Source: an uncultured Actinomycetes bacterium
GTDB taxonomy: Bacteria; Actinomycetota; Thermoleophilia; Gaiellales; Gaiellaceae
DNA length: 64,000 nt
Direction of reading: 5' to 3'
NCBI GenBank assembly: GCA_963718355.1
Contig: CAVQZA010000005.1
Location: 122,110-186,109, forward strand
The position numbers and the translations under genes are program-made. Of this stretch, positions 3,701 through 30,395 are shown in pieces. Within the stretch, counting starts at the first letter, position 1; every line of letters starts with the position of its first letter. The notes under the pieces are model-generated. The model was not told the DNA's origin. It searched no databases and worked only from the letters and a program-made list of their open reading frames with translations.

Positions 3701-3871
3701 GGGATTGAGCTGCAGGAGCAGGCGTCGTCTCTGCAGGCCCGTGGATGCAAGATCGGCCAGGGATTCCTGTTCGCCCGCCCTATGGGGTCGGGCGCCCTGA
3801 CCGACTTCCTTACGCTTGCAGCTGCGACCCCCGGAGACGTCGAGTCTTCGGCGTCGTTCAATGCAGCATAG
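725..3871 (+). CDS. Polytopic membrane sensor with GAF-like, PAS, GGDEF and EAL domains (c-di-GMP turnover protein)
   Basis: About 300 aa of N-terminal TM helices, a PAS-like FRSLVAHSSDLITVLD, RFGGDEFAVLL (GGDEF) and EALLRWNHP (EAL). GTGA overlap with the upstream gene. Confidence 0.9.
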   Translation: MTALPVLGSWRSRLWVWYLVSTCALMGLYLFAPGLAGSGPLFNALGLSGVIAIVVGIRLNKPRARAAWWLFAAGQFLFFCGDLYTYSYPKLFGADVGFPSIGDALYLAVYPVLMAGFVLLIRRRNPRPDRAALIDALILTIGFALLSWVFLIAPNVHLSGLSWLAKGVSVAYPLGDVLLLAAVIRLAVDAGKRTPAFWLLVSSVVCLMATDSAYNYALLKNTFHHQLSFDAGWILYYLLWGAAALHPSMRTLEEPASNPRARLTPVRLVLLAGACLIAPGIHFAQSLNNPDVMVLVVASAVLFLLVVARMAGLVRQEERAVSRERALRSAGIDLVAAADQDQVAAAAILGVRRLLGPGTAARLVLVRDGEAVVAAASDGAVGQPISDRTRAWLRQNPSDSIRIVETELPAHVQAELRLSGEQATCVSPLIVRDEVRGTLVVSAPSSVIRNLTDALSALATQVSLAVEAASLSADLHRRQSEVRFRSLVAHSSDLITVLDAQGVITYQSPSIEGVLGYRVDEVEGTRFDRLLSASDRPLLDQLLAADTPRHSEGHTIECSVLHRDGAVLRFEVQHTDLLHDEHVRGLVLNSRDISERKAFEDQLAHQAFHDPVTKLANRALFSDRVEHALMRSTRGIPEIAVMFVDLDDFKTVNDSLGHAAGDEVLREVGERLRSAVRPTDTVARFGGDEFAVLLDGVTGSEDAADAAARILRALDLPVEIEGKNVFPRASIGICLVGEDLETPAAADLLRNADVAMYMAKRDSKGSYRVFEATMHERVVERLELRSDLQHAMALDQLELHYQPVVRLAGREIIGVEALLRWNHPVRGTIPPNHFIPVAEETGLIIPIGRWVLELACREGVRLHQRFPRAEPLTMSVNLSVRQLQSESIVSDVREALAVTGLPAACLVLEITESLMLVDTDFGIQQLHDLKSLGVRLAMDDFGTGYSSLSYLSRFPVDILKMDRSFVGSGDNEALTSAIIALGESLSLEVVAEGIELQEQASSLQARGCKIGQGFLFARPMGSGALTDFLTLAAATPGDVESSASFNAA

Positions 3872-5297: not shown

Positions 5298-5326
5298 GTC
5301 GCGTGAACAGCCTACTTAGGAACTAC

Positions 5327-5722
5327 CTAGGCGGCATGTCTCGTACCAGCGAGTAGCGCCTCGGCCACGCGAGCATCGGCTGACTTGACGAGTCGACCGC
5401 TCTCCTCGCTGGCGTCGAGCAAGGCGGCCGCGAGGGCTCCCGTCTTGTCCCCTGGTCGTAGTTCGAGGAACTCGTCCCAAGACTGAGCCACGACTCGTTC
5501 GACGGCCCACAGCGCCTCGTCGATCAGGGAAGCGAAGATCGCCTCGGCGGCATCCGCCAGCATCTCGATCGAACGGGTGTCGCGCGCATCGATCGAGGCG
5601 ACTTGCCAAGCCATGCCGCGGACGACTCCTTCCCAGCTGCCGCCGCGACACATCTCACCCAGGGCGCCGCGAAGAGCGTCCTCCGCGATCTTCTCGCTCA
5701 TCCCAGCAGGTATGTGCGCCAT
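5327..5722 (-). CDS. Hypothetical all-alpha protein (about 131 aa), no family recognised
   Basis: ORF 5327..5809 has GC3-rich codon usage. Start is uncertain (5809, 5722 or 5701). It lies directly downstream of the deacetylase gene on the same strand. Confidence 0.35.
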   Translation of the reverse strand: MAHIPAGMSEKIAEDALRGALGEMCRGGSWEGVVRGMAWQVASIDARDTRSIEMLADAAEAIFASLIDEALWAVERVVAQSWDEFLELRPGDKTGALAAALLDASEESGRLVKSADARVAEALLAGTRHAA

Positions 5723-5836
5723 CGAGTGGATGTTCCGCTTTCGACCGGACGATGCGGTCCGGAGGCAGAGCAGCGTCAACGTCTCCCTACACGGAGCGAA
5801 CGAGCGCATTCCGTTGTGGCGCTGGCCGGAGCTCGC

Positions 5837-7288
5837 TCAGCGGGCGAAGCCAGGGTCGGCGAGTGCTGCTGCGAACTGGGTGATGGTGGTGTCGGTGTGT
5901 ACCTCGAAGCGGTAGCGCCGGTTGAATCCGTTTAGTGCTCCGACGGTCCCGGATGCGAGTGCGTAAGTGACCGGGTTGGTCTGGGTGAAGATGACCGGGA
6001 ACTTCGATGCCATGAAGCCCGGCAACCATCCTTGGAGGGTGCCGGAGGGGTCGTTGTAGAGGTTCGTCCACTGACCGGCGTCGTTGAACGGGAGTGCCCA
6101 GCTGACCATCGATGCCGTCGGGATCTTGGTATTGATCTCGGTCATGCCGGCAGTGACCTCGCTGGTGATCCGCACTTCTGCCTGTGCCGGCGTCTCGGTC
6201 GTGGTGGTGGTCGTTCTGGTGCTCCCCGTTCCGGTGATCGTCCTGATCGTCCCAAGACAGCTGTAGAAGTACGGGCAGGTGGTGGGGAACGACTCGGTGA
6301 CACCAGTGCCGAGAGTGATCCTCGCCGGTGGTTTGTCGGCGTAGGAGTCGCCGTGGCCGTACTGGCCGGCGTGGAAGGCGACCTGCCAGCGACCCGTCGC
6401 CACCAGCGCCTGGATGTTCGCCCAGGTCATGTTGTTCGGGTCGGCATCACCCGGGGTCAGGTTGTCGGCAAAACCCGTGACCACGAACAGCACCGCCGTG
6501 AAGCCGTACTTCTGCAGGATCGGATCCCACGCCTGCTCGTCCTTGATCCCGTCGTCGACGGTGATCAGCACCGGCTTGGCGACACCGATGTTCGCGCCAC
6601 CCAGCCACTGCTGGTACTGCTCGAGCGTGACCGATTGGTAGCCGTTCGTCTTCAGATAGGAGAGCTGCGCATCCGCCTCGGCCGGCGTCTCGTCATAGAT
6701 CGAGTAGCCACCCGGCGGATTGATCTCATGGTAGTTGAGCACCGGTAGATAGGTGATCGTCCCCGTCGTGATCGTGACCGGCGACGCACTGGCGATGTTG
6801 CCGGCCTGATCGGTCACCGCGGCGGAGATCGCATGTTGCCCTGCCGTCAGCGTCGAGGTGTCGAAGGTGATCGTGTACAGGTAGGACTGACCTGCGTCAG
6901 GCGCGGTCTGCCGGCGACCGAGGACGGCTCCGATGATGATGGCGGCCGCGACGGCGAGCACCGGATACCGCGCTTGAGAGGCGAACCCGCGACCGCCGGC
7001 GGCGAGACCGGACGCTGTCAGCAGCACGAGCGTCGCGATCCCGACCAGGGTCGAGACGAGCAGCACGAATGCCGCAACAGGCCGCCGGACCGAGTATCGC
7101 CTCAGTTGCTCGTACCAGTAGATCGTGGAAATGGCCTGCCCGCCGGGTATCGAGTTGATCATCGCGATACCGATCACCGTGAGCGAGAAGAGCGCGCGGA
7201 ACGGGACCGTGACCGAGCCGAGCCTTAGCAGCACCCGGACGAGCGCCGCATAGCAGGCGAGTGACGCGAGCTCGGCCACGGCGGCCAC
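5837..7288 (-). CDS. Membrane-anchored polysaccharide deacetylase (NodB domain) with an Ig-like segment; its N-terminal TM part resembles the distal half of a flippase-like (UPF0104 / LPG-synthase TM) domain
   Basis: LITVDDGIKDEQAWDPILQKYGFTAVLFVVTGF (NodB motif 1 context), an Ig-like LTAGQHAISAAVTDQAGNIASASPVTI, and TM segments with INSIPGGQAIS. Confidence 0.75.
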   Translation of the reverse strand: MAAVAELASLACYAALVRVLLRLGSVTVPFRALFSLTVIGIAMINSIPGGQAISTIYWYEQLRRYSVRRPVAAFVLLVSTLVGIATLVLLTASGLAAGGRGFASQARYPVLAVAAAIIIGAVLGRRQTAPDAGQSYLYTITFDTSTLTAGQHAISAAVTDQAGNIASASPVTITTGTITYLPVLNYHEINPPGGYSIYDETPAEADAQLSYLKTNGYQSVTLEQYQQWLGGANIGVAKPVLITVDDGIKDEQAWDPILQKYGFTAVLFVVTGFADNLTPGDADPNNMTWANIQALVATGRWQVAFHAGQYGHGDSYADKPPARITLGTGVTESFPTTCPYFYSCLGTIRTITGTGSTRTTTTTTETPAQAEVRITSEVTAGMTEINTKIPTASMVSWALPFNDAGQWTNLYNDPSGTLQGWLPGFMASKFPVIFTQTNPVTYALASGTVGALNGFNRRYRFEVHTDTTITQFAAALADPGFAR

Positions 7289-7294
7289 CGCGAT

Positions 7295-7561
7295 TCAGCC
7301 CGGTTGCGCGCTTCCGAGCCTCGAGAGTGAATGCTCGATCGAGCCACGGCGAGCAGCGATCAGGTAGACGGCGGCACCGAGGAGGGCCAGGGTGAAGCCG
7401 ATCCTGATCTCGCGCAACGGCAGTCGTGCCCAGAAGGCATGAAGAGCTCGGTCGAGCCGATGCAGCCCGCACACCGCTCGCTCTCGGGCTCGCAGCTCGC
7501 GCACGCTCGCGGGGCAATCCCGCAGCCGCGGCCTCGTGGCGCCGGAACCAGGTGAGGTCAT
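7295..7561 (-). CDS. 88-aa fragment: cytoplasmic N-terminus plus the first TM helix of a flippase-like membrane domain; in frame with ORF 5837..7288 across a TGA
   Basis: IRIGFTLALLGAAVYLIAA TM helix. Stop TGA at 7295-7297 is in the same frame as GTG 7288, 9 nt downstream. Confidence 0.5.
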   Translation of the reverse strand: MTSPGSGATRPRLRDCPASVRELRARERAVCGLHRLDRALHAFWARLPLREIRIGFTLALLGAAVYLIAARRGSIEHSLSRLGSAQPG

Positions 7562-7705
7562 TTCCCGAACTCCGCCAACGGTATCGGAGCGACGATCGGG
7601 GTTGGCGCATCTACCACCTCGACTCCGCTCGACGGCTCCAGACCGCAGTGGTCGGACAGACCCAAACGGTCACACTGCACGCGCAGCCCCTGCGAAGATG
7701 ACCCG

Positions 7706-8092
7706 GTGGAGCGGATTCGGATCGACAAGTGGCTCTGGGCGGCGCGCTTCTTCAAGACGCGCGGCGAGGCGACCCAGGCGGTCCTGGGCGGCCACGTCCA
7801 CGTGGGCGGCGAGCGCGTCAAGCCTGCCCGGGAGGTCCGGGTCGGCGACATCCTCGAGATCTGTCGTCGTGAGGTCGGCTGGACGGTCGTCGTCACCGGC
7901 GTCGCGGGCCGGCGCGGGCCCGCGAGCGTCGCCGCGACGCTGTACGAGGAGACGCCCGAGTCGCTTGCAGCCCGCGAGCAGCAGCGGCTCGAGTGGCGTA
8001 TGGCCCGGCCGCTCGGCGCCGACCTCGGCTCGCGGCCGACGAAGCAGGCGCGCCGTCTGATCGAGGCGCTGCGGCGCGGCGAGCGGGCCTAG
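7706..8092 (+). CDS. hslR: S4-domain RNA-binding heat-shock protein 15-like
   Basis: IRIDKWLWAARFFKTRGEATQAVLGGHVHVGGERVKPAREVRVGD is the typical Hsp15 S4 motif. Confidence 0.8.
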   Translation: MERIRIDKWLWAARFFKTRGEATQAVLGGHVHVGGERVKPAREVRVGDILEICRREVGWTVVVTGVAGRRGPASVAATLYEETPESLAAREQQRLEWRMARPLGADLGSRPTKQARRLIEALRRGERA

Positions 8093-8771: not shown

Positions 8772-10526
8772 ATGCTCAGTGCGATGACGAGGCTTCGCAG
8801 CGAGCAGTGGTTCGGGGCACGGGACATCTCGGGCTTCATCCACCGCTCGTCGATCCACGCCGAGGGCATCTCGCGCGCCGCGCTCGTGGGACGGCCGGTG
8901 GTCGGGATCTGCAACTCGTGGTCCGAGCTCGTCAGCTGCAACCTCCATTTCCGCGGGCTCGCCGAGGCGGTGAAGCGCGGCGTCCTGCTCGCCGGCGGGC
9001 TGCCGCTCGAGTTCCCGGCGATCGCACTCGGCGAGAACCTGATGAAGCCCACGGCGATGCTCTTTCGGAACCTGATGGCGATGGACGTCGAGGAGTGCAT
9101 CCGCGCCTACCCGTTCGACTCGGTCGTGCTGCTCGGCGGCTGCGACAAGACCGTGCCCGGGCAGCTGATGGGCGCGGCCAGCGCGGGCGTCCCGGCGATC
9201 ATGGTCACGGGCGGCCCGTCCGAAGCGGCCTGGTTCAGAAATCAGGAGCTCGGCGCCGGCACCGATCTGTGGCACTACGCCGACGAGCTGCGCGCCGGCC
9301 GGATGACCGAGGCGGAGTTCGACGAGCTCGAGGCGGCGATGACGCCGGGTGTCGGCCACTGCAACTCGATGGGCACGGCCTCGACGCTGACCTCGCTCGT
9401 CGAGGCGCTCGGCATGTGCCTGCCCGGCACGGCGTCGATTCCCGCTGTCGACGCCGCCCGCGCCCGCGCCGCCGAGGCGACCGGCGCCCGCGCGGTCGAG
9501 CTCGCGCGCGAGGGGCTCGCGCCCGCCGCGATCCTCACCGCCAAGGCGTTCGACAACGCGATCACGACGCTGATGGCGATCGGCGGCAGCACGAACGCGG
9601 TGATCCACCTGATCGCGCTCGCGGGCCGAGTCGGCGTGCCGCTGACGCTCGACCGTTTCCACGAGCTTTCGCAGCGGACGCCGTTGCTCACGAATATCCG
9701 CCCCTCGGGCGAGCACCTCGTCGAGCAGCTGCACCGCGCCGGCGGGATTCGCGCCGTGCTGAACGAGCTCGCGCCGCTGCTCCACGGCGAGGCCCTGACC
9801 GTCACCGGTCGCTCGCTCGCGGAGGGCTTTGCCGGCGCCGCGGTGCTCGACCGCGACGTGATCGCCTCGCTCGACTCGCCGCGCGCCGCGGCGGGCGGGA
9901 TCGCGGTCATCCGCGGCAGCCTCGCCCCCGACGGCGCGCTCGTGAAGCGGAGTGCGGCCTCTCCGGAGCTGCTGAAGCACCGCGGCCCCGCGCTCGTGTT
10001 CGAGGACATCTACGACGTCGCCGCGCGGATCGACGACCCGGATCTCGACGTCACCGCCGACTCGGTGCTCGTCCTGCGCAACGCGGGCCCGAAGGGCGGG
10101 CCGGGGATGCCGGAGTGGGGCGCGCTGCCGATCCCGAAGAAGCTGCTCGAGCAAGGCGTCACGGACCTCGTGCGAGTCTCGGACGCGCGCATGAGCGGCA
10201 CCGCCTTCGGCACCGTCGTGCTCCACGTTGCGCCCGAGTCGGCAGCCGGCGGGCCCCTGCGCGCGGTGCGCGACGGCGATCCGATCGTGCTCGACGTCGA
10301 CGTCCAGCGCCTCGACCTCGACGTGCCGGCCGACGAGATCGCGCGCCGCCTCGCCGAGCTCGGGCCCGCCGAGCCGAAGTACCGGCGCGGCTACGGTGCG
10401 CTCTACCTCGAGCATGTGCTCCAGGCCAACGAGGGCTGCGACTTCGACTTCCTGCGCGCGCGAGAGGGCGAGCCACCCGAGTCGGAGCCGCTCGGGCTCC
10501 TCAGCGGCTGGATCGGCGGCTGGTAG
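8772..10526 (+). CDS. IlvD/Edd family dehydratase (sugar-acid dehydratase-like)
   Basis: LRSEQWFG N-terminus, GGCDKTVPG, GHCNSMGTAST and SDARMSGTAFG motifs. Confidence 0.9.
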   Translation: MLSAMTRLRSEQWFGARDISGFIHRSSIHAEGISRAALVGRPVVGICNSWSELVSCNLHFRGLAEAVKRGVLLAGGLPLEFPAIALGENLMKPTAMLFRNLMAMDVEECIRAYPFDSVVLLGGCDKTVPGQLMGAASAGVPAIMVTGGPSEAAWFRNQELGAGTDLWHYADELRAGRMTEAEFDELEAAMTPGVGHCNSMGTASTLTSLVEALGMCLPGTASIPAVDAARARAAEATGARAVELAREGLAPAAILTAKAFDNAITTLMAIGGSTNAVIHLIALAGRVGVPLTLDRFHELSQRTPLLTNIRPSGEHLVEQLHRAGGIRAVLNELAPLLHGEALTVTGRSLAEGFAGAAVLDRDVIASLDSPRAAAGGIAVIRGSLAPDGALVKRSAASPELLKHRGPALVFEDIYDVAARIDDPDLDVTADSVLVLRNAGPKGGPGMPEWGALPIPKKLLEQGVTDLVRVSDARMSGTAFGTVVLHVAPESAAGGPLRAVRDGDPIVLDVDVQRLDLDVPADEIARRLAELGPAEPKYRRGYGALYLEHVLQANEGCDFDFLRAREGEPPESEPLGLLSGWIGGW

Positions 10527-20385: not shown

Positions 20386-20715
20386 CTAGGCGCTGGCCGC
20401 GGCGAGCGCGGTGCGCAGCGAGGCGAGGCTGAACGGCTTCATCACGTAGGCGGCCGGGTCGAGCTCGAGCCACGAGGGCTCGGGCGGCTCGATGCTCACG
20501 CAGACGAACCGAAGGTCGGGCCGCTCGCCGCGCAGCGCCTGCGCGTGGCGCAGGCACTCCGTCTCGGCCGGCTCGAACAGGAGCACCGACGCGTCGGACG
20601 GCATCGCGCCTTGGACTTCGTGGACGGCGAGCGGCTGGTAGCCGAGCCTCGTGGCCATCTGGACGAGCAGCGCCCGGACATCGTGATGCGGCTCGTTGAT
20701 CAGGATCTTCGACAT
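20386..20715 (-). CDS. Stand-alone atypical receiver (pseudo-receiver) domain protein, 109 aa
   Basis: REC-like layout ILINEPHH...VLLFEP...VCVS...VMKPF. The acidic pair is replaced by N-E and the phospho-acceptor Asp by Glu. Confidence 0.6.
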   Translation of the reverse strand: MSKILINEPHHDVRALLVQMATRLGYQPLAVHEVQGAMPSDASVLLFEPAETECLRHAQALRGERPDLRFVCVSIEPPEPSWLELDPAAYVMKPFSLASLRTALAAASA

Positions 20716-20777
20716 CAGATACCCGAGTATCGGCCGCGCGAGTAGGGAAATCGCCCGGGTGATGGTATGAAGACGGT

Positions 20778-21467
20778 ATGAGCGTCGCCACGATCCTCGT
20801 GGTGGACGACGACGCAGACACCCGGGGGCTGGTACGACGCCTGCTGGAGCGCGCCGGCTATGTCGTGCGCGAGGCAGAGGATGGGCTTGCCGGGCTTCGC
20901 GAGCTGTTCGCCGCGCCGCCGGATCTCGTCCTCCTCGACGTGATGATGCCCGGGCTCGACGGCTGGACGACACTGGAGCGGATCCGCGAGGTCAGCGACG
21001 TACCCGTGGTGATGCTGACCGCGCGCGACACCGAGCTCGAGCGGGTCCACGGCCTCTCGCACGGCGCGGACGACTACATCTCGAAGCCGTTCGGCCGACA
21101 GGAGCTCGTCGCGCGGGTCCAGGCACTCCTGCGCCGCGCCTCGGCCGGCGGGATCGAGACGGCCGACGCGTACGCTGACTCGTACCTGGAGATCGACTTC
21201 AAGCAGCGCGTGGCCAGGGTCGCCGGAGCCGACGTCGCGCTGACCCCGCTCGAGTTCAAGCTGCTCGCCGTCTTCGTCCGGCACCCGAATCAGGTGCTCT
21301 CGCACGACCAGCTGCTGGAGCTCGTCTGGGGCGACAGCTTCGGAGTCGCGCGCGACCAGGTCAAGCTCTACGTCGGCTACCTGCGGCGAAAGCTCGACCC
21401 CGACGATCCGGGCTCGGTGCCGATCGAGACGATGCGGGGGTTCGGCTACCGCTACCGGCGAACCTAG
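20778..21467 (+). CDS. OmpR/PhoB family response regulator
   Basis: ILVVDDD, LVLLDVMMPGLDG, MLTA, DDYISKPF and a winged-helix C-terminus LTPLEFKLLAVF...RGFGYRY. Confidence 0.9.
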   Translation: MSVATILVVDDDADTRGLVRRLLERAGYVVREAEDGLAGLRELFAAPPDLVLLDVMMPGLDGWTTLERIREVSDVPVVMLTARDTELERVHGLSHGADDYISKPFGRQELVARVQALLRRASAGGIETADAYADSYLEIDFKQRVARVAGADVALTPLEFKLLAVFVRHPNQVLSHDQLLELVWGDSFGVARDQVKLYVGYLRRKLDPDDPGSVPIETMRGFGYRYRRT

Positions 21468-23197
21468 CTCGGGCCGGTGAGTGGCAGGTCGACCTGGAAG
21501 GTCGTGCCGCCGTCGATCGTGCTCTCGACCTCGATCGAGCCACCGTGGGCCTCCGCGATCGCCTTCGCGATGTAGAGGCCGAGCCCGGTGCCGGGCGCCT
21601 GCCGGCTGACTGCGCTCGAGGCGCGGAAGAAGCGCTCGAACAGCCGGCCGAGCTCCTCCTCCGGGATTCCGATCCCCGAGTCGGTGACGCGGAGCCGCGC
21701 AAGTCCGTTTCGCCGGTCGAGCCGCGCCTCGACGCTGCCGCCGCTCGGAGTGAACTTGACGGCGTTCGAGACGAGGTTGTCGAGCAGCTGCGCGAGCCGG
21801 TCGGCGTCGCCGACGACCACCATCGGCCCGTGGATCTCGCTGCTGAGCGCGACGCCGCGATCGGAGGCGCGGGGCCGCGCCGAGTCGATCGCGTGGACGA
21901 TCACATCCGCGAGGTCGACCTCGTCGAGGTGCATGTCGAGGCGCCCCGCCTCGAGCCTCGCGACGAAGAGCAGGTCGTTGACGAGGGTGAGGAGCCTGCG
22001 TGCGTTGCGGCCGACGATCGCAAGGAACTCGCTCTGCTCGTCGTTGAGCGGGCCTGTCTCCGGATCGTCGAGGAGCTCGAGGTACCCCGTGATCGACGTC
22101 AACGGCGTACGGAGCTCGTGCGAGACGAGCCCCACGAACTCGTCCTTGAGGCCGTCGAGCTCCTGCAGCCTCGCGTTCTGCTCGGCGAGCTGCCGCTGGG
22201 CCGTCTCGGCGAAGTAGCGCGCCTCACGCTCGTCCTCGGCCAGGCCGTCCATCGCGCGGACGAGCACGATGATCCGGGTGAGCACGAGAAGCGAAGCAAT
22301 GGCGCCGCCGATCGCAATCACGTACTCGCCGAGGTCCGCGCCCCGCGTCGCCTGGACCACGAGGATCACGGGCGCGGCCAGCAGCCCGACACCCAGCATC
22401 ACGATCCGCGGCCAGCCGAGGCGGGGCTCGACGGCTCGCTCGCCGAGAGTCAGCGGCTTCATCGACGGCGACAGCGCGGCGACGCCCCAGGCCACGTAGG
22501 ACAGCAGCCAGAGCGAGTCGAGCCACGACCCGGCTGCGTAGCCCGACGGATCGACGGCATACACCTCGTCGCCGGCCATCATCAGCACGATCGCCGCGAC
22601 GAGCAGGAGATACGACTGGTTGCGCCAGGCAGGAGTGATCATCGACCGCGCGAGCGGTACGAAGAGGAGCAGGTCCATGGCCGGATACGCCAGCAGGACG
22701 GCCAGGCTGTAGTTGTCGTAGCCCTGTGAGGTCAGCGGCGCCATCACGAACACCCACTGCGCCGTCGCGAACGCAGTGGCCAGGATCGTGGCGTCGAGCG
22801 CGGCGAGCCGGCTCTGGACGGGCCCGAGACGCTGGGCGAGCTCCCACATGCCGACGAAGAGGAACGGATAGCCGGCGAGGTAGAGCACGTCGCTCGCCGA
22901 GATCGTCGGCTCGGCTCCACCGGAGACGCTGTAGTAGGCGCTGAACGCGTCGCCGGCTGCGAAGAGGAGCAGCGCGGCGGACAGGAAGTACCACGGCAGC
23001 CGCCGACCCGTCCGGAGGTGCGCCCGCGCCCCGATCGCCACCGCTGCGGCGGCGGAGAGCGCGACCGCCACATAGAGCACCGACTGCGCCTTGCCGCCCT
23101 GCGGGAGCAGGAAGTAGAGCCCGATCGCCACGACTCCGCCGGCCAGGTAGAGCACGGCCGGAAGTTGACGCCTCTCGGCGGGAGTCATGGTTCGCAC
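21464..23197 (-). CDS. Sensor histidine kinase with a polytopic membrane N-terminal sensor domain
   Basis: H-box LVSHELRTPLTSITGY, N-box and G-boxes DSGIGIP...GTGLGLYIAKAI, and about 290 aa of N-terminal TM helices. Alternative start at 23188. Confidence 0.9.
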   Translation of the reverse strand: MRTMTPAERRQLPAVLYLAGGVVAIGLYFLLPQGGKAQSVLYVAVALSAAAAVAIGARAHLRTGRRLPWYFLSAALLLFAAGDAFSAYYSVSGGAEPTISASDVLYLAGYPFLFVGMWELAQRLGPVQSRLAALDATILATAFATAQWVFVMAPLTSQGYDNYSLAVLLAYPAMDLLLFVPLARSMITPAWRNQSYLLLVAAIVLMMAGDEVYAVDPSGYAAGSWLDSLWLLSYVAWGVAALSPSMKPLTLGERAVEPRLGWPRIVMLGVGLLAAPVILVVQATRGADLGEYVIAIGGAIASLLVLTRIIVLVRAMDGLAEDEREARYFAETAQRQLAEQNARLQELDGLKDEFVGLVSHELRTPLTSITGYLELLDDPETGPLNDEQSEFLAIVGRNARRLLTLVNDLLFVARLEAGRLDMHLDEVDLADVIVHAIDSARPRASDRGVALSSEIHGPMVVVGDADRLAQLLDNLVSNAVKFTPSGGSVEARLDRRNGLARLRVTDSGIGIPEEELGRLFERFFRASSAVSRQAPGTGLGLYIAKAIAEAHGGSIEVESTIDGGTTFQVDLPLTGPS

Positions 23198-23225
23198 CGC
23201 TCGCCCAAGGATAGGACGGCGGGTC

Positions 23226-24608
23226 TTACTTCGTGGTCGTTCCGCTCAATGTCGCGGTGCCGCTCGTGTTGCCGGCCGGATCGGTGGCGCTGACCGAGAA
23301 CGAGACTGCCTTGTTCTTCTGGCTGCTGACCGTGATCGAGAACGAGCCGCCGGAGCAGGCGCCCGTGAAGGTTCCCGCCCCAGACGGAGCAGTCTGGACG
23401 ACCTTGACGGTCGAGCCCGATTCGCAGGACCCGCTGACGGTGTCGCCGGACGGGCTCGTGCGATCGGTGAACGAAAGGCTGCCGGGGGTGGTCGGGGCGA
23501 CCGTGTCCTTGGTTGCGGTGATCGAGCGCTGGTTCGAGACGTTGCCGGCGAGGTCTGTGGACGTCGCGGTCACGGTCACGTTTCCGTCGGAGAGGCTCGA
23601 GGCGTTGAGGCCCGACACCGACACCGTCCCGGCGCCGGCGCTTGCCGCGGTCGTCCCGGTGACCGTGTGGGTGCCGTCGCTCAGCGTCACCGTGACGGTG
23701 TCGCTCGCGAGCGAGCCCGAGGGCAGGGTGACGTTGACCGAGACGGCCGACGCCGTGATGTACGTGCTCGTCGAGACGGCGCTCGGCTGGGCCGGCGGCG
23801 TCGCGTCGGCCGTCTGCACCGCGGCCGGGCTGTCGAGGCTCGTCAGAGGCGTCGTGTCGGTCGAGACGGCGTTCACCTTGTAGGTGTACGTCGTCCCGTC
23901 CGTCGTCGTCGTGTCCGAATACGTCAGGACGGTGAGCGGGGTGGAGTTGAGCTTGGCGTAGGAGCCCGCGCCCGACTTGCGGTAGACGTCGTAGCCCTTG
24001 AGGTTGGTGACGGTCGTCGACGCGCCCCAGGCGAGGTCGATACGGCCAGCCGGGCGCTGGGTCGCGGTCAGCGAGGGCGGCGCCTCGGGCGCCTCGTCGA
24101 GCGTCAGCGAGTAGGTGCGGTACATCCAGCTCAGCGTCGACAGGCCCAACTTGATCGAGCCGACCCCGTGGCCGGCGATCGTGTTGGAGGTCGTCACGGT
24201 GACGGTGGTCGAGGCGCCGGCTGCGAGTGTGGCGGTCGTCGTGCCCGTGCTCGCGAAGACGGCGGAGACGACCTGGGCCGGGCCGTTCAGCGTCAGCACC
24301 GCCGTGCGGCTCGCGGTCGACACGTTCTTGACCGTGTAGACGCTCGTGTAGATGCGCGCGGAGGGCACGAGGCCGAACGCAAGCGCGAGGTTGTTGACGG
24401 AGCCGGTCGCGACCGGGGTCGAGGTGTTCGCCACGACCGCGGTGCCGGGGGTCACCTGAAAGTAGTTGCCGAGCGTGTCGACGGTGACCGTGTTCCCGGT
24501 CACCGCCGTCTGCGCGGTGAACGCGGCGCTCGTCAGACGCGCCGTGAGGCCGGCGGCGATCGCCGCCACCGAGGCGGCGAGGAGGATGATCGCGAGGAGG
24601 CGCCTCAT
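23226..24608 (-). CDS. Secreted protein with a SipW-type signal peptide, a TasA/camelysin-like N-domain, an FN3 domain and Ig-like repeats
   Basis: MRRLLAIILLAASVAAIAAGLTARLTSAAFTAQT signal, FN3-like LAWGASTTVTNLKGYDVYRK...YTYKVNAV, and Ig-like TVTATSTDLAGNVS and SVSATDPAGNTS. True start is ATG 24608, 1 nt after the sipW stop. Confidence 0.7.
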   Translation of the reverse strand: MRRLLAIILLAASVAAIAAGLTARLTSAAFTAQTAVTGNTVTVDTLGNYFQVTPGTAVVANTSTPVATGSVNNLALAFGLVPSARIYTSVYTVKNVSTASRTAVLTLNGPAQVVSAVFASTGTTTATLAAGASTTVTVTTSNTIAGHGVGSIKLGLSTLSWMYRTYSLTLDEAPEAPPSLTATQRPAGRIDLAWGASTTVTNLKGYDVYRKSGAGSYAKLNSTPLTVLTYSDTTTTDGTTYTYKVNAVSTDTTPLTSLDSPAAVQTADATPPAQPSAVSTSTYITASAVSVNVTLPSGSLASDTVTVTLSDGTHTVTGTTAASAGAGTVSVSGLNASSLSDGNVTVTATSTDLAGNVSNQRSITATKDTVAPTTPGSLSFTDRTSPSGDTVSGSCESGSTVKVVQTAPSGAGTFTGACSGGSFSITVSSQKNKAVSFSVSATDPAGNTSGTATLSGTTTK

Positions 24609-24609
24609 C

Positions 24610-25137
24610 TCAGCTCGTCGCTCCGGACGCGCTGGGCTTCGGCTCGCGCCAGATCGACAGGAGCAGCACGGCGAGCATGGTCGCGACCGAGAAGAGGATG
24701 AGCACCATCCGCACCTCGCGCGTTCCCGCATAGACGAGCGCGTAGCCCGCGTAGGGCACGTCGAACGAGAGCCGGCCGACCTGGTTCGGAAGCGCGATCG
24801 TCCAGGGGTCGCGCGACGGGTTGGCGTCGCCCTTCGTCCAGTAGGCCCGCGTGCCGTCCTGCTTCACCGCGATCCGGATGACCCGGTGTGTGACGCGGCG
24901 GTTGTGGACGAACGGGTCGTTGAAAGTGATCACATCGCCGACACGGACGGAGCTCGCCGCGACAGGCTTGACGACCGCGAGGGAGCCGACACCGAGCGTC
25001 GGCACCATCGAGCCGGAGTAGACCGCCACCGGCCGGTAGCCGGCGCCGATCAGTCCCCCGTAGGCGAGGACGAGGAGGACGGCCAGCCCAGCGATCAGGC
25101 CGGCCGTCCAACCCGCGATTCGGCTTAGATGCCGCAT
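24610..25137 (-). CDS. Signal peptidase I, ER/archaeal (SipW) type
   Basis: N-terminal TM, catalytic box VYSGSMVPTL, THRV, KGDANPSRDP, and the C-terminal TM typical of SipW-type S26 peptidases. Confidence 0.8.
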   Translation of the reverse strand: MRHLSRIAGWTAGLIAGLAVLLVLAYGGLIGAGYRPVAVYSGSMVPTLGVGSLAVVKPVAASSVRVGDVITFNDPFVHNRRVTHRVIRIAVKQDGTRAYWTKGDANPSRDPWTIALPNQVGRLSFDVPYAGYALVYAGTREVRMVLILFSVATMLAVLLLSIWREPKPSASGATS

Positions 25138-25156
25138 TCGCTCAGTCCCCTGTCCC

Positions 25157-25687
25157 TTACGCCTGCGTCGCGGACCAGTTGAAGGTCGCGGTCGAGGTCA
25201 GGCCCTGGAAGACGTTGTCGCCGGGGTCCGTACCGGTGGTGGGCAGGTCGATGTGGAAGTAGTACACATGCGATCCCGAAGTCGCCGGGAAGGTGCCGAG
25301 GGCGAGGGAGCTCAGCCCGGCAAGAGTGCCGTCGTAGATCTTCGAGCCCACCAGGTTGTCGGTGTCCTTGTAGATCACGAGGTGGAGCTGGCCGGCGAGC
25401 GGTGCGCTGCCGGTGGTGGAGCTCGTGAGCGTGTAGATCGCGGCGAGCGAGCCGGTGTTGGTGATCGTCACCGAGCCGGTCGCGGTGTCGCTGATCTTCA
25501 TGTTCGCGGCTGTGAAGATGGCCCCCGAGCCGGACCGGCTCATGGTGAGCGTGCCGCTCGTGAAGGCGTTGCTGGAGATCGACGTGGGCGTCGCCGTGAA
25601 GTTGGCGTACGTGCCGCCGATCGCCGCGACGGATGCGACGCCGATGGCGCCGACCGTTGCGATGAGCTTCCAGGTCTTGCTCTTCAT
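25157..25687 (-). CDS. TasA / camelysin-like secreted protein with a SipW-type signal peptide
   Basis: MKSKTWKLIATVGAIGVASVAAIGGTYANFTA signal, NAFTSGTLTM, and a beta-rich Thr/Ser-rich body. RBS GAAAGGA lies 8 nt upstream. Confidence 0.7.
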   Translation of the reverse strand: MKSKTWKLIATVGAIGVASVAAIGGTYANFTATPTSISSNAFTSGTLTMSRSGSGAIFTAANMKISDTATGSVTITNTGSLAAIYTLTSSTTGSAPLAGQLHLVIYKDTDNLVGSKIYDGTLAGLSSLALGTFPATSGSHVYYFHIDLPTTGTDPGDNVFQGLTSTATFNWSATQA

Positions 25688-25869
25688 CCGTATGTCCTTT
25701 CAATTGGTTTCTGCGCTTGCGGACACACCCTCGGCGACGCCGGAAGGGGAAGAGGGGTCGGTTCGGGATGAATCCCGTATGACCCGAGGACAGCCGGGGT
25801 CGCCGTCGCTCCGGAAATCGCCCGGAGCAGTGGTACGATCGTCGGGCTCGGTGCCCAAGTCCTCGGCGT

Positions 25870-25961: not shown

Positions 25962-28133
25962 TTGGCAGAAGGGTCGGTGCTCGTGACCGAGCGACTCGCT
26001 CGTTTCTGCTCCGCGCACCCGCGTCGCGTTCTGGCCGGGTGGGGTGTCGCGATCCTTGCGGCGATCGTCCTCGCCGCGACCTCGCTGCACGGGCTCAGCT
26101 CCGACGCGACCGTGACCGGGAACCCGGAGTCGGCGCGCGCCGCCGCCGCGATCGCAGCGGCGTTTCCGCCGTCGGCGGCCGAGCTGCGGCGCCAGTCGAG
26201 CGACATCGTGGTCGTGTCCTCTGCGCAGTACGCGGCGGGGAGCCCGCAGTTTCAGGCCTTTGTGACGAGGCTCAGCGGCGACCTCCACGCGACCGGGAAG
26301 GTGCAGAACATCGTCACGCCTCCCGTCGTCTCGAAGGACGGCCACGCTGTGCTGCTTCCGATCCTCGTGGGCAGCGACGCCGCGATCAAGCCGGTGGTCG
26401 CGCTGGTGCAGAAGGATGGCCTGACGCCGGGCTTCGAGGTCGCGATCACCGGCGCCCACTCCTCCGCAAACGACTTCAACCTCATCTCGCAGAGCGACCT
26501 GAAGAGCGGCGAGCTCGAGTTCGGGCTCCCGGCGGCCCTCCTGATCCTCGTGCTCGTCTTCGGAGCGGTCGTCGCCGGGCTGATCCCGGTGCTGATGGCG
26601 CTCGTGTCGATCATCGTCGGGATCGGGCTCGTCACGCTGCTCTCGCTCGAGTTCAGCCTCTCGGTCTTCATCGTGAACATGCTGACGGGGATGGGGCTGG
26701 CGCTCGGGATCGACTACTCGCTGTTCGTGATCTCCCGGTATCGCGAGGAGCGCGCGGGCGGCGCCGCCGAGGAGCAGGCGATTGCGCGCTCAGGGGCGAC
26801 GGCGAGCCGCGCCGTGCTTTTCAGCGGCAGCATCTTCGTGGTCGCGCTGCTCGGACTGCTGATCGTGCCGACGACGATCCTGCGCAGCCTGGCCGCTGGC
26901 GCGATCGTTGTCGGCGTCGTCTCGGTGGCGGCCGCGCTGACGCTCCTGCCTGCACTGCTCGGACTCTTCGGCGACGGGATCAACCGACTGCGGGTGCCGC
27001 TGTTCGGCGGCGGCGGCGGTGGCGGGGAATCGCGCTTCTGGCGCTGGATCGTCCATACGGTCCTCCGCCGCCCGGCCCTCAGTCTCGTCCTCAGCGCCGG
27101 GGCGATGCTAGCGCTCGCAGTGCCGCTGCTCGGGTTGCACATCGGCTCGAGCGGTATCGCCTCGCTCCCGGACAGCTCGCCTTCGAAGCACGGCTTCCTC
27201 GTCCTCGAGCGCGAGTTCCCGGCCCAGAGCCCGTACCCGACGCAGATCGTCGTGCAGAACGGCAACGCGTCGGTGGGCGCGGCCGTCGCGGCTCTGGAGC
27301 GGACTCTCGCGGGCGATTCCCGCTTTGGAGCCGGCCAGATCCAGGCAGCTCCTGCGCGCCACGTGATCGTCCTCACGGTCCCGGTGCGGGGCGACCCGGT
27401 GCGCGGCACGGCGATCGACGCCGTGCGCGACCTCCGCGCGAACCTCGCGCCGGCCGCGCTCGCGGGCACCGGCGCTCAGATCCTCATCGGGGGCAAGACC
27501 GCGGAGAACGCCGAGTACTTCGACGCGGTGACAAACCCGACGCCGTACGTGCTCGCCTTCGTGCTCGGCCTCAGCCTGATCTTGCTGATGATCGCATTCC
27601 GCTCGCTCGTGATCGCGGTCGTCTCGATCCTGCTCAACCTCCTCTCGGTGGGAGCGGCCTACGGGCTGCTCACCCTCGTGTTCATCCACGGCTACGGCGC
27701 GAGCTTCTTCGGCTTCGAGCACGCGGCAGCGATCGACGCCTGGGTGCCGCTCTTCCTGTTCGCGGTGCTCTTCGGCCTCTCGATGGACTACCAGGTGTTC
27801 CTGACCAGCCGGATCAAGGAGCGCTACGACCGGGGCGGCACCACGCGCGAGGCCGTCGAGACCGGCGTCGCCTCGACCGCGCGCATCATCACGGGCGCCG
27901 CGCTGATCATCATCGTCGTCTTCACCGGCTTCGCGCGCGGGCAGCTCGTCCAGTTCCAGGAGATGGGCTTCGGCGTCGCGGTCGCGCTCCTGCTCGACGC
28001 GACCATCATCCGCTGCGTCGTGCTGCCGAGCACACTCGTTTTGCTGGGACGGTGGACGTGGTACCTGCCGAGCTGGCTCCAGTGGCTGCCCCACATCGAG
28101 GTCGAGGGCAAGACGCCGCCGGCTACGTCGTAG
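25962..28133 (+). CDS. MMPL family (RND superfamily) membrane transporter
   Basis: Two 6-TM bundles with GIDYSLFVISRYREE and GLSMDYQVFLTSRIKE motifs. Start uncertain: TTG 25962 or GTG 25983. Confidence 0.85.
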   Translation: MAEGSVLVTERLARFCSAHPRRVLAGWGVAILAAIVLAATSLHGLSSDATVTGNPESARAAAAIAAAFPPSAAELRRQSSDIVVVSSAQYAAGSPQFQAFVTRLSGDLHATGKVQNIVTPPVVSKDGHAVLLPILVGSDAAIKPVVALVQKDGLTPGFEVAITGAHSSANDFNLISQSDLKSGELEFGLPAALLILVLVFGAVVAGLIPVLMALVSIIVGIGLVTLLSLEFSLSVFIVNMLTGMGLALGIDYSLFVISRYREERAGGAAEEQAIARSGATASRAVLFSGSIFVVALLGLLIVPTTILRSLAAGAIVVGVVSVAAALTLLPALLGLFGDGINRLRVPLFGGGGGGGESRFWRWIVHTVLRRPALSLVLSAGAMLALAVPLLGLHIGSSGIASLPDSSPSKHGFLVLEREFPAQSPYPTQIVVQNGNASVGAAVAALERTLAGDSRFGAGQIQAAPARHVIVLTVPVRGDPVRGTAIDAVRDLRANLAPAALAGTGAQILIGGKTAENAEYFDAVTNPTPYVLAFVLGLSLILLMIAFRSLVIAVVSILLNLLSVGAAYGLLTLVFIHGYGASFFGFEHAAAIDAWVPLFLFAVLFGLSMDYQVFLTSRIKERYDRGGTTREAVETGVASTARIITGAALIIIVVFTGFARGQLVQFQEMGFGVAVALLLDATIIRCVVLPSTLVLLGRWTWYLPSWLQWLPHIEVEGKTPPATS

Positions 28134-29676
28134 CGGTTCGCTCCGCCAGCCTGCTGTGCACGAACTGCACGGCCATGGCTCCTTCGCCGACGGCAGTTGC
28201 GCAGCGCTTCGTCGAGCCGGAGCGAACGTCCCCCGCAGCGAACACGCCCGGGAGACTGGTCTCCAGCAGGTGGTCGCTACCCGCGTCGGCGCCAGTGAGG
28301 ATGAACCCGTTCTCGTCGCGTGCGACGACGTCGCCGAGCCACTCGGTGCACGGCAGCGCGCCGAGGAAGAGGAACAGGAACGAGAACGGCAGGCGCTCGC
28401 CGCTCTTCAGCGTGACCGCCTCGATCCGGCCGTCCTCGCCGTGCAGCTCGGCGACCTCGCTCCGGTCGCGCACCGCGACTCCGTACCGCTCGAGCTCCCG
28501 GACGAGGTAGTCGGACATCGTCTCGCGCAGGTCGCCGCGACGATGCAGCAACGTTACGAGCGCCCCGCCGCGCGCAAGCCAGACAGCGGCCTGACCGGCG
28601 GAGTTGCCACCGCCGACCACGCCGACGCGCGCTGCGCCGCAGAGCTGACGCTCCGGAGGCCCGGCCGCGTAGAACACGCTCACGCCCTCGTAGTCCGACA
28701 GGTTGTCGACCGGCAGTCGCCGGTACTGCGCCCCTGTCGCGAGCAGGACCGTGCGCGCCGCGATCACGTGATCCTCTTCGAGCCGTACCAGATAGCCGCC
28801 GTCGGCAGGCTCGAGCGACAGCGCCCGGTACGGCGTCGCGGTCCGCGCCTCGAACTTGCGGGCCTGCGTGATCGCGCGGCTCGTCAGCTCGGCGCCGCTG
28901 ATTCCGGCGGGGAAGCCGAGGTAGTTCTCGATCCGGCGTGATGTGCCCGCCTGTCCGCCGAGCGCACTCCCCTCGACGACCAGGGTTTCCAGCCCCTCCG
29001 AGGCGCCGTAGACCGCAGCCGCGAGACCGGCTGGCCCGCCTCCGACCACGACCAGGTCGACCTCCTCGCGCGGCGCGAGCTCGCGGCCGATCCCCAGCGC
29101 GCGGGACACCTGGGCGGTCGAGGGGCCGCGCAACTCGAGACCGCCCGGCAGCCGCACGAGCGGCAGGCTCCCCTCGTCCGGCGGCGTCGAGTCGAGCCAC
29201 GTGTAGGGCAGCCGGTTGCTGCTCGCGAACTCGACCATCCGCATCGTCGCCTCGGACGAGCGCGGGCCCACGATCTCGAGACCGATCCCGGCGATCTGCT
29301 GCAGCGCCTCGCGCCGCGCGATGAAACTCGTGAGCAACAGGTCGCTGAGGAGGCCGTCCTCGAACAGCAACGGCCGGAGCGCATCGCGATCGACGGCGAT
29401 GTACCGCAACGCCTTCGTCACGACCGCCGTCAGGAAGACCGTCTGGCCCGACAGCAGGCTCACCTCGCCCAGGAAGCCCGAGGTGCCGTGACGGATGATC
29501 TCGTTGCCTTCGCCGTCGCGGATCGCCACTTCGCCCTCGATGATCGCGATGAACGGATACCGCCTGTCGCCGACCTGGAACAGCACGTCGCCGACCGCCG
29601 CGCTGCGCTCCTCACCGAGCTCGGCGAGTGATGCGAGCTGGGACGCGGACAAAACCGGGCTGGCAGGAGCGGCCAC
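28123..29676 (-). CDS. Cyclic-nucleotide-binding domain fused to a thioredoxin-reductase-like FAD/NAD(P) oxidoreductase
   Basis: CAP_ED-like FLGEVSLLSGQ, VVVGGGPAGLAAAVYGASEGL, VGVVGGGNSAGQAA and GVFAAGDV motifs. No CxxC is present. Confidence 0.85.
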   Translation of the reverse strand: MAAPASPVLSASQLASLAELGEERSAAVGDVLFQVGDRRYPFIAIIEGEVAIRDGEGNEIIRHGTSGFLGEVSLLSGQTVFLTAVVTKALRYIAVDRDALRPLLFEDGLLSDLLLTSFIARREALQQIAGIGLEIVGPRSSEATMRMVEFASSNRLPYTWLDSTPPDEGSLPLVRLPGGLELRGPSTAQVSRALGIGRELAPREEVDLVVVGGGPAGLAAAVYGASEGLETLVVEGSALGGQAGTSRRIENYLGFPAGISGAELTSRAITQARKFEARTATPYRALSLEPADGGYLVRLEEDHVIAARTVLLATGAQYRRLPVDNLSDYEGVSVFYAAGPPERQLCGAARVGVVGGGNSAGQAAVWLARGGALVTLLHRRGDLRETMSDYLVRELERYGVAVRDRSEVAELHGEDGRIEAVTLKSGERLPFSFLFLFLGALPCTEWLGDVVARDENGFILTGADAGSDHLLETSLPGVFAAGDVRSGSTKRCATAVGEGAMAVQFVHSRLAERTATT

Positions 29677-29699: not shown

Positions 29700-30395
29700 C
29701 TAGAAGGCGATCAGCTTCTCCATCTGCGGCGAGGGCTCGAGCCCGAGCTCGTCGTGCAGGAGCGCGCGGAAGCGCCGGTACTGGGTCAGTGCCTCGTTGC
29801 GGTTTCCCTCGGCGAGATGCGCCCGCACGAGCGCGCGGTGGGCGCTCTCGCGCAGCGGCTCGCTCCGCATCGCGGAGAGGCCGGCCTCGATCGCCTCGCC
29901 AAATCGATTTGCCTCGACGAGCCGGTCACAGAGGCGCTCGAGCGCATGGACGCGGAGCTGGCGGAAGCGCTCGCGCTCGACCGCGACCCAGTCGTCGTAC
30001 CAGTCCGGAAGCAGGTCGTGCGAGAGCAGGAGGCAGTCGGGGCTCGGGCACTCCGACTCCGCCGGATCGAGCAGGCGCCGCGCCTGGGCCGCCGCGTCGT
30101 CGACGTCGACCGCGACGTCGGCCGCGAGGCAGAGTCGCTCGCCGTTCGTCTCGATGAAGCGGTAGCGCCTGTTCAGACGCCACAGCGCCGACCGGAGACT
30201 GCCGGCGGCGCGATCCTCCGGCGAGTCGAGCCACAAAGAGCCGGCGACGAACGGCCGTAACAGCGAGCGGCCGTGCAGCGCGAGGAAGACGAGCACGCGC
30301 TGGCCGTTCATCGGCAGCGTGATCGACTCGCCGCCGACCGAGAGATCGAACGCGCCGAGCAGCCTGAGCCGCGGAGCCTGATCGGCTAGCGGCAT
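29700..30395 (-). CDS. Small SARP-type regulator (OmpR-like winged helix plus BTAD domain)
   Basis: LRLLGAFDLSVGG...RVLVFLALHG..., DLLPDWYDDWVAVERERFRQLRVHALERL and ALTQYRRFRALLHDELGLEPSPQM. Confidence 0.8.
   Translation of the reverse strand: MPLADQAPRLRLLGAFDLSVGGESITLPMNGQRVLVFLALHGRSLLRPFVAGSLWLDSPEDRAAGSLRSALWRLNRRYRFIETNGERLCLAADVAVDVDDAAAQARRLLDPAESECPSPDCLLLSHDLLPDWYDDWVAVERERFRQLRVHALERLCDRLVEANRFGEAIEAGLSAMRSEPLRESAHRALVRAHLAEGNRNEALTQYRRFRALLHDELGLEPSPQMEKLIAF

Follow-up and report, generated by a model that had tools for sequence, protein, structure and literature searches.

A probable TasA-type extracellular fibre module with its own regulatory genes in a Gaiellales-like actinobacterium

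The window analysed here, a 64-kb stretch of contig CAVQZA010000005.1 from an uncultured member of the Gaiellaceae, carries a group of six adjoining genes, lettered A to F, that probably makes up a conserved and self-contained module for TasA-type extracellular fibres in a Gaiellales-like actinobacterium (class Thermoleophilia), a variant of a known biofilm-fibre system. The first four lie together on the minus strand: A (25157-25687) encodes a 176-residue protein of the TasA family, the predicted major fibre subunit; B (24610-25137) encodes a 175-residue signal peptidase I of the archaeal/endoplasmic reticulum (ER) type, resembling SipW; C (23226-24608) encodes a 460-residue secreted accessory protein with a SipW-type signal and immunoglobulin (Ig)-like modules; and D (21464-23197) encodes a polytopic histidine kinase. 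Convergent with D on the plus strand is E (20778-21467), the gene of an OmpR-family response regulator, followed on the minus strand by F (20386-20715), which encodes a stand-alone pseudo-receiver of 109 residues. The gaps within the minus-strand group are 19 nt between A and B, 1 nt between B and C, where the TGA stop codon of B is separated by a single base from the ATG of C, and 28 nt between C and D. The original prediction for this stretch, made from the sequence alone, had named four closely spaced minus-strand genes, an OmpR-type regulator converging on the kinase and an atypical receiver beside that regulator; the open reading frames bear out all three, and for the receiver the coordinates given above are the correct ones. 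Its core proposal, a TasA-like protein with a SipW-type peptidase and a second protein bearing a SipW-type signal, linked to a two-component system, is likewise sustained by the hidden Markov model thresholds, the profile homology to TasA and the synteny described below.

Purine-rich ribosome-binding sites precede both A and B, and the Shine-Dalgarno (SD) sequence of A, GAAAGGA, lies at 25695-25701. The start chosen for C, which yields 460 residues from a reading frame with a maximum of 501, is supported by an independent gene call from another assembly, by an identical 460-residue protein in NCBI and by the concordant N-termini of homologues. For D the start is ambiguous between GTG at 23197 and ATG at 23188, 9 nt further in; the latter may be the true one, as it is implied by the gene call of another assembly, and the protein with the GTG start is absent from the protein collection searched. 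The stop codons of D and E overlap in the palindrome CTAG (21464-21467), so that the two transcripts must overlap at their 3' ends. Scans of the window against Rfam and for tRNAs returned no matches, and the sole terminator-like site recovered by a terminator scan lies on the opposite strand, inside an MMPL gene. A search for paralogues across the 64 kb found no other TasA-like, SipW-like or C-like gene.

Peptidase B exceeds the cut-off of TIGR02228, the model for archaeal/ER-type signal peptidase I (94.8 bits against 51.85), and falls below that of the SipW equivalog NF046067 (71.6 against 190). Hydrophobic, predicted transmembrane segments lie at its N- and C-terminal ends (residues 12-30 and 144-162), and between them are the boxes SGSM at residue 41, THRV at 83 and GDAN at 103, which published work on SipW would mark as catalytic, with Ser43 and His84 as the predicted catalytic residues. 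The enzyme class, the SGSM and GDAN boxes and the C-terminal transmembrane segment had all been foreseen.

The assignment of A to the TasA/camelysin family, also part of the original prediction, is carried by two results. A exceeds the gathering cut-off of PF12389, Peptidase_M73 (30.9 bits against 22.5), and an alignment of the A family (62 sequences) compared by hhalign with Bacillus subtilis TasA gives a probability of 94% and E 1.4e-7 over 76 columns at 32% identity. This alignment spans the signal peptide, the cleavage site and the first strands, including the donor-strand segment, and places GGTYA/NF of A opposite GGTWA/AF of TasA (the slash marks cleavage). In a profile search of the PDB with the A family, the best sequence matches were the TasA entries 5OF1 and 8AUR (E 0.003), and a C-terminal motif of A, DNxFQG..F.W.ATQ, resembles QNKYQGNSIKLQFSFEATQ of TasA as a sub-threshold match. 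We found 433 homologues of A, for most of which, among those listed, the precomputed Pfam column gives PF12389; the family spans 812 clusters at 50% identity, and close relatives are named 'TasA family protein' (including [Gaiellaceae]) or 'spore coat-associated protein N' by NCBI and JGI. The TasA equivalog model NF046066 is far from being reached (20.6 bits against a cut-off of 450), and A is a member of the TasA family, not a TasA orthologue.

Cleavage of A is predicted at a SipW-type site, GGTYA28/N29FT, which would leave a mature protein of 148 residues whose putative N-terminal donor strand covers about residues 29-50. The N-terminal consensus of the family (n=82) reads AVGGTFA/NFTATPTTIxSNAFASGSLTM, and the mature N-terminus that follows the cleavage site is conserved as strongly as the core. 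An AlphaFold2 monomer model of A is an all-beta sandwich with a predicted local distance difference test (pLDDT) score of 74, with good confidence in the core and low confidence at residues 24-60, a pattern that would be compatible with donor-strand complementation.

C has a different architecture. Behind its signal and predicted SipW-type cleavage site (TSA28/A29FT) follow an N-terminal strand, an Ig-like domain of the ASH/choice-of-anchor-D kind (about residues 45-170), an FN3-like module (about 172-259), Big_13 (299-369) and Big_6 (371-454). Of the FN3 and two Ig-like modules originally read in this protein, Big_6 exceeds its cut-off (37.8 against 27.6), Big_13 is marginal (26.9 against 27) and FN3 is weak, with a Pfam E of 0.69 and a match to an Fn3-like PDB chain at E 0.003. 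The further claim that the N-domain is TasA-like did not survive. BLASTP of A against C finds no similarity, and hhalign of the two families aligns only 21 N-terminal columns (TYANFTATPTSISSNAFTSGTL against TSAAFTAQ-TAVTGNTVTVDTL; E 0.041, probability 1.3%). Members of the N-domain family match the HYDIN/CFA65/VesB-like Ig model (17 of 33, best 5.4e-6), ASH (16 of 33) and the NCBIfam choice-of-anchor D model (26 of 33, best 8.9e-8), and not PF12389. The AlphaFold2 model of the N-domain has pLDDT values of 70-94; a Foldseek search with the whole C model, from which the N-domain could not be isolated, returned tandem Ig, PapD-like or macroglobulin-type proteins.

What C has in common with A is therefore confined to the end of the signal peptide and the first ~20 mature residues, the segment that in TasA serves as the donor strand. 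The N-terminus of the C family (consensus xARLSAA/AFTGSTAxPSNxVTVDxL, n=41) is strongly conserved, like that of the A family. This commonality could be read as descent, with C being a large TasA paralogue that has a jelly-roll N-domain and co-polymerises as a second subunit, and such a reading could also draw on a 'G/S..t.tvtvtNtG/S'-like strand motif present in both proteins, on the 7 of 62 A-family members that weakly match the choice-of-anchor D model and on the existence of true second TasA-like genes at some related loci (loci are numbered with the prefix L). One of these lies downstream in L002 (10214-10777), matching the family motif by eye at its C-terminal end and having no Pfam match, and another, 31% identical to A, lies downstream in L028 (2869-3237). 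We nevertheless consider paralogy very unlikely and have rejected it, given the null BLASTP result, the restriction of the profile alignment to the N-terminal motif, the ASH/HYDIN-type identity of the N-domain and the Ig-rich Foldseek matches. Moreover, a complete Ig-type sandwich offers no open groove for an incoming strand, as has been argued for TapA (PMC10151520).

In TapA itself the signal peptide comprises residues 1-43, the mature protein begins at A44 with an N-terminus homologous to its TasA counterpart, and the fold is a complete Ig; donation of this N-terminus by TapA starts filament formation (PMC10151520). C has the corresponding features, namely a SipW-type signal, an A-like mature N-terminus, a complete Ig-type body and a gene beside those of the peptidase and the subunit. 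Because the resemblance of C to A stops after the signal end and the putative donor strand, and a complete Ig-like domain comes next, a TapA-type initiator, anchor or tip protein is favoured over a co-polymerising paralogue. The TapA model TIGR04087 (YqxM_for_SipW) has no match at E up to 1 for C or its family. Export of C by Tat was considered and rejected, as homologues do not keep the RR of residues 2-3 and have MRK, MKR or MKK in its place.

Very strong synteny supports the reading of these genes as a unit. Our synteny sample comprised 80 loci, all from metagenome collections and from soil, with 60-71% identity in A. B follows A at all 65 loci with enough downstream DNA, and the N-domain of C follows B at all 39 testable loci. 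At 14 of 21 loci the next gene after C is that of a D-type kinase whose sensor region is homologous. In a close relative, an uncultured Actinomycetes metagenome-assembled genome (MAG) with 85% identity in A, the order A-B-C-D-E-F is identical. A search of genome contigs with a single protein returned 3 loci. In a separate sample taken from the kinase side, 3 of 3 D homologues (43-44% identity, Gaiellaceae MAGs) lay within the same six-gene module. The Gaiellaceae MAG modules are flanked by uvrB and uvrA, and that of the window by MMPL and PfkB/KDPG-aldolase genes; the retention of all six genes in a different genomic context indicates that the module moves as a whole.

More distant Thermoleophilia loci (Solirubrobacterales and Thermoleophilaceae; 39-44% identity) keep the order TasA-like protein, peptidase and third secreted protein, and the body of that third protein is DUF7483 or CBM96 (L002, ~9200-10217; L003, ~9050-9704). 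Its N-terminus nonetheless matches that of its own TasA-like partner, FSASSANPSNTFTSG against FTASKSNPSNSFTAS, with 9 of 15 residues identical as counted from the translations.

Several results weigh against reading these genes as a fibre module, and most of them concern A and its relation to C. The PF12389 match of A is limited to the first, N-terminal third of the model (residues 14-82 on positions 14-77 of 196). The SipW-substrate-like signal ends originally noted are present in both proteins (GGTYANFTA and LTSAAFTAQT); the SipW-cognate signal model TIGR04088, however, scores A below its cut-off (13.8 bits against 19) and has no match for C or the C family, whereas 25 of the 62 A-family members match it at E up to 1 (best 0.0015). 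A Foldseek search with the A model returned generic jelly-roll or carbohydrate-binding module matches with template modelling scores of ~0.4; the archaeal thread 7PNB ranked 21 and the ABP entry 7UEG ranked 26 (E ~5-8e-4), and TasA was not among the top 50. As these matches are generic, the fold evidence for A is compatible with a filament subunit and not specific to one. C, for its part, has no recognisable wall- or membrane-anchoring signal: its sole hydrophobic segment is residues 4-22, there is no C-terminal transmembrane segment, and no LPXTG motif was found in its sequence. Finally, the short strand similarity between A and C could reflect only a shared peptidase recognition site.

Taken together, these points leave some room for a reading in which A is secreted and does not polymerise, acting as a camelysin-like protease or as a soluble or surface protein released by a dedicated peptidase, and in which C is an independent adhesin using the same export route. 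The Pfam family is indeed named 'camelysin metallo-endopeptidase', the similarity of A to TasA is limited to the N-terminal ~80 residues and the short C-terminal motif, and TIGR04088 matches residues 13-47 of A, which span the predicted cleavage site, as a recognition element for SipW would. We regard this as unlikely. A search of the A sequence for an HExxH-type metal site found none, and characterised relatives of A form filaments or polymers: TasA, BsaA, AbpA and AbpX are all reported to assemble into extracellular filaments or polymers (PMC9674648, PMC9245690, PMC7395162, 2026 AbpX preprint). The mature N-terminus of the family is conserved like the core, as is expected of a structural strand and not of a segment that is discarded or serves recognition only. 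The tracking of the cognate TasA-like N-terminus by that of the third protein, across lineages in which the remainder of this protein differs, argues in the same direction.

Comparative genomics suggests that D, E and F form a regulatory circuit dedicated to the structural genes. D has a polytopic membrane sensor region of ~330 residues without a Pfam family match, followed by HisKA (6.3e-20) and HATPase_c (3.9e-32), and its at least 6 hydrophobic segments at a strict threshold agree with the multi-transmembrane histidine kinase proposed at the outset. The sensor region has 194 homologues, all of the same architecture, and the named ones come from Gaiellaceae or from MAGs labelled 'Actinobacteria bacterium'. 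E combines Response_reg (1.4e-31) with the winged-helix domain Trans_reg_C (8.8e-23), so that the two proteins have the make-up of an OmpR-family two-component system; from their conserved adjacency we infer that they are a cognate pair. Pfam Response_reg has no match to F, and a profile of 9 F orthologues aligns with Spo0F/CheY at E 4.4e-6, with LEP placed on LLD. An invariant Glu occupies the phospho-acceptor position of F (LFEPA) and Glu-Pro replaces the acidic pair, while the lysine of KPF is kept; lacking the acidic pocket and the Asp of a true receiver, F is a pseudo-receiver, and it could act as a phosphomimetic adaptor or inhibitor. The exact protein is present in NCBI, and its gene adjoins the convergent regulator in all full-length modules and is conserved after E in at least 13 loci. 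In many related modules a further gene, co-directional and encoding a receiver only, lies between those of the kinase and the convergent regulator (L007, 6243-6590; L008, 10913-11260; L036, 7857-8213; L056, 12240-12587; L062, 9341-9688; L081, 4454-4801). The window and the Gaiellaceae MAG loci L084-L088 are without this gene, and it is there that the 3' ends of kinase and regulator overlap.

A candidate target of E was read from an alignment of 53 distinct regions upstream of A, in which the non-coding conserved blocks begin with TC(A/C)TAC-N4-TTCAT. This block can be read as a direct repeat, TCATAC-N5-TCATCC, with half-sites TCATAC and TCATCC in an 11-bp period, a geometry typical of OmpR/PhoB-type regulators. 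In the window the predicted binding site upstream of A lies at 25768-25782 on the minus strand (TCATACGGGATTCAT) and ends 80 nt before the ATG of A. A second copy lies at 20767-20781, again on the minus strand (TCATACCGTCTTCAT), ends 51 nt before the ATG of F and overlaps the ATG of the divergent gene E, such that the CAT of its first half-site is the E start codon. Exactly 33 nt downstream of the first copy is a CCGAKGGT block (25727-25734, minus; here CCGAGGGT), which is near-invariant in the 53 upstream regions and is a possible -10 region; a CCGA-NNNT block lies 33 nt downstream of the second copy as well (20726-20733; CCGATACT). The identical spacing at both sites suggests a common promoter geometry. 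The motif has exactly 2 matches in the 64-kb window against 0.19 expected, a number reached by 0 of 100 shuffles. Across 485 kb of related loci it has 86 matches: it lies 80-86 nt before the start of A in 67 of the 75 loci with enough upstream DNA and upstream of F in 13 of the 13 loci that include the F start, and of the 6 remaining matches 4 fall in the same E/F spacer and one more at the regulator start of a Solirubrobacterales locus. It is therefore predicted, from these positions, that E binds both boxes and controls the structural operon and the E/F pair. As D is inside the structural operon and no terminator was detected, such control would also give feedback on the kinase.

An alternative is that D, E and F are neighbours with an unrelated regulon, and that the upstream motif is a general sigma-factor promoter element and not a site for E. 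The kinase sensor region has no known ligand or family, and a D-type kinase is missing next to C in one third of the loci (7 of 21), a point that also counts against the fibre-module reading as a whole. Half of the motif in the E/F spacer overlaps the start codon of E, so that coding may explain some of its conservation. A scan of the window for sigma-70-type promoters returned 0 promoters, which counts against the main reading of the module. These considerations have to be set against the distribution of the motif, which occurs at only two places in the window and almost only at the equivalent places in the related loci, with a repeat geometry that fits OmpR/PhoB-type binding. Most of the loci that lack D still have a directly adjacent OmpR regulator, either convergent after C or upstream of A (L043, L049, L058, L059, L011, L013, L063 and L064), and in the Solirubrobacterales locus L002 a differently arranged set of kinase, receiver and OmpR genes lies immediately upstream of that for the TasA-like protein. 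Given, in addition, that the six genes are kept together in a different genomic context, an unrelated regulon seems to us quite unlikely, and control of the fibre genes by D, E and F is preferred.

The leader of A may hold a further element in other members of the family. Most relatives have an inverted repeat, GCGTGTCA...TGACACGC, flanking the SD sequence of A, with z scores of -2.1 to -2.6 (for example L086, 4475-4507, and L088, 4485-4519), which may serve to stabilise the 5' end or act as a translational hairpin. The leader in the window (25688-25735) is not convincingly folded (z -0.67) and is without this inverted repeat, and L001 has a different hairpin located upstream of the SD sequence.

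By analogy with the characterised relatives, we propose the following course for fibre assembly. A and C would leave the cell by Sec, each with an unusual signal peptide that is cut by the operon's own peptidase, B, at GGTYA/NFT in A (A28/N29) and at TSA/AFT in C (A28/A29). The mature 148-residue A would then polymerise outside the cell, as the major subunit, by donor-strand complementation, in which the N-terminal strand of each A completes the beta-sandwich of the next subunit; this mode of assembly is reported for TasA, AbpA and AbpX (PMC9674648, PMC9245690, 2026 AbpX preprint). Since C has a matching N-terminal strand followed by a complete Ig-like domain, and no acceptor jelly-roll, it could occupy only one end of the fibre. 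Its strand would plug into one terminal subunit, and C might thereby prime assembly, as TapA does, and anchor or cap the fibre. The Ig, FN3 and Big modules of C, or CBM96 in relatives, would bind either the cell's own envelope or external material, making C an anchor or a terminal adhesin. D would be transcribed with the structural genes, and expression would be controlled by D, E and F, most likely with E acting on the two TCATAC-N5-TCATCC boxes, the one upstream of A and the one between E and F.

A broader and decidedly more tentative idea, which we would not at present back over its alternatives, is that the TasA-type fibres of Thermoleophilia are modular display scaffolds coupled to a dedicated feedback circuit. 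Here a 'strand-tagged' terminal protein, in which the first ~20 mature residues copy the cognate donor strand, may carry exchangeable bodies (the ASH-Ig/FN3/Big adhesin, CBM96 or DUF7483), and a circuit consisting of a kinase with ~10 transmembrane segments that is transcribed along with the structural genes, a convergent OmpR regulator acting on two boxes and a pseudo-receiver might monitor export or assembly at the membrane.

Two further matters concern the surroundings of the module. The MMPL gene beside it was considered as a member and rejected, as it adjoins the module in the window only: in L001 an MMPL-like gene of 38% identity lies ~3.3 kb upstream, and none is present at the Gaiellaceae loci. 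Elsewhere in the window, a 1048-residue PAS-GGDEF-EAL protein of cyclic di-GMP turnover is encoded at 725-3871 on the plus strand, ~20 kb from the fibre module, within a stretch (1-8000) of generally lower G+C content (0.63-0.67 against ~0.70). In the same stretch, a gene at 5837-7288 (minus) encodes a 483-residue protein with weak, sub-cut-off Pfam matches to the transmembrane region of lysyl-phosphatidylglycerol synthase, to polysaccharide deacetylase and to Big_13, and its product may be an envelope-modifying enzyme. On the other side of the module, a gene at 28123-29676 (minus) joins a cyclic-nucleotide-binding domain to a pyridine-nucleotide-disulphide (thioredoxin-reductase-like) oxidoreductase, and this fusion gene adjoins that of a BTAD-domain transcriptional activator (29700-30395, minus).

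Gaiellales and Thermoleophilia are abundant and almost uncultured soil actinobacteria, and we know of nothing on how they attach or build a matrix. The module described here is a real and strongly conserved unit, an uncharacterised variant and not a new kind of system. Should it prove to make fibres, this would carry TasA-type donor-strand assembly, by experiment, into a second large Gram-positive phylum; the very short subunit of 148 residues would provide a small test system, the role of the accessory protein could be tested with a peptide, and the conserved operator pair constitutes a concrete regulatory prediction. The direct-repeat motif and its two conserved positions are new here. TasA homologues in Actinobacteriota, on the other hand, are already published and automatically annotated, and current views are not overturned: PF12389 homologues in this phylum were reported by Wang et al. 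2022 (PMC9245690), and the central TasA cluster includes Actinomycetota sequences (2026 AbpX preprint). In the literature searched we found no experimental study of an actinobacterial TasA-type system, in agreement with the statement in the original prediction that no equivalent has been characterised in a high-GC actinobacterium; the novelty which that statement implied is reduced by these homologues, by the existing TasA names and by the operon with a two-component system in Clostridium perfringens.

Comparison with known systems places the module closest in logic to tapA-sipW-tasA of B. subtilis. Both comprise a subunit of the TasA family, an ER/archaeal-type peptidase of their own and a secreted accessory protein whose mature N-terminus mimics that of the subunit and whose body is a complete Ig-type domain. 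The cleavage contexts are nearly identical, with GGTWA/AFN against GGTYA/NFT for the subunit and TSA/AFH against TSA/AFT for the accessory protein. The gene order differs, being accessory protein, peptidase and subunit in B. subtilis and subunit, peptidase and accessory protein in the window. Mature TasA has 234 residues whereas mature A has 148 and fails the TasA equivalog model, and C is unrelated to TapA in sequence, being composed of an ASH-type Ig domain with FN3 and Big modules. The B. subtilis operon is controlled by SinR/SinI and related regulators, whereas kinase, regulator and pseudo-receiver form part of the module in the window.

In this last respect the sipW-bsaABCRSD operon of C. 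perfringens is the nearer parallel, as a two-component system is encoded together with the sipW/TasA-like genes. The polymers of BsaA reportedly contain intermolecular isopeptide bonds (PMC11580942). The operon-encoded kinase/regulator pair BsaRS is required for expression of sipW-bsaA, and BsaR binds the promoter of the operon (PMC7395162). The BsaA model TIGR04090 is matched weakly by 19 of 62 A-family members (best 5.2e-4), but A of the window has no match at E up to 1. The two systems also differ in gene order, in the orientation of the regulator, which is convergent in the window, in the polytopic sensor of the window kinase and in the extra pseudo-receiver, and no link to type IV pili is evident in the window.

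The archaeal AbpA and AbpX loci also encode short TasA-superfamily subunits (~160-180 residues when mature); these polymerise by N-terminal donor-strand complementation, as is proposed for A. These loci often lie beside a signal peptidase I and accessory or 'tip' proteins of lineage-variable fold, and at bacterial AbpX loci a link to histidine kinases is common. Unlike these subunits, A falls by sequence with the bacterial TasA proteins (PF12389; hhalign), and the peptidase at AbpX loci has ten transmembrane segments, whereas B has two. A is not acidic (isoelectric point 5.2, with 7 Asp and Glu among 148 residues), so that the mechanism proposed for AbpX, which depends on calcium, would not be expected to apply to it. 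In sipW-calY1-calY2 of Bacillus cereus, TasA-family proteins are encoded beside sipW and there is no tapA gene (PMC10151520). These camelysins belong to the same Pfam family as A and, like A, adjoin a SipW-type peptidase; the B. cereus locus has two TasA paralogues, whereas the window combines a single TasA-family gene with an Ig-type accessory protein.

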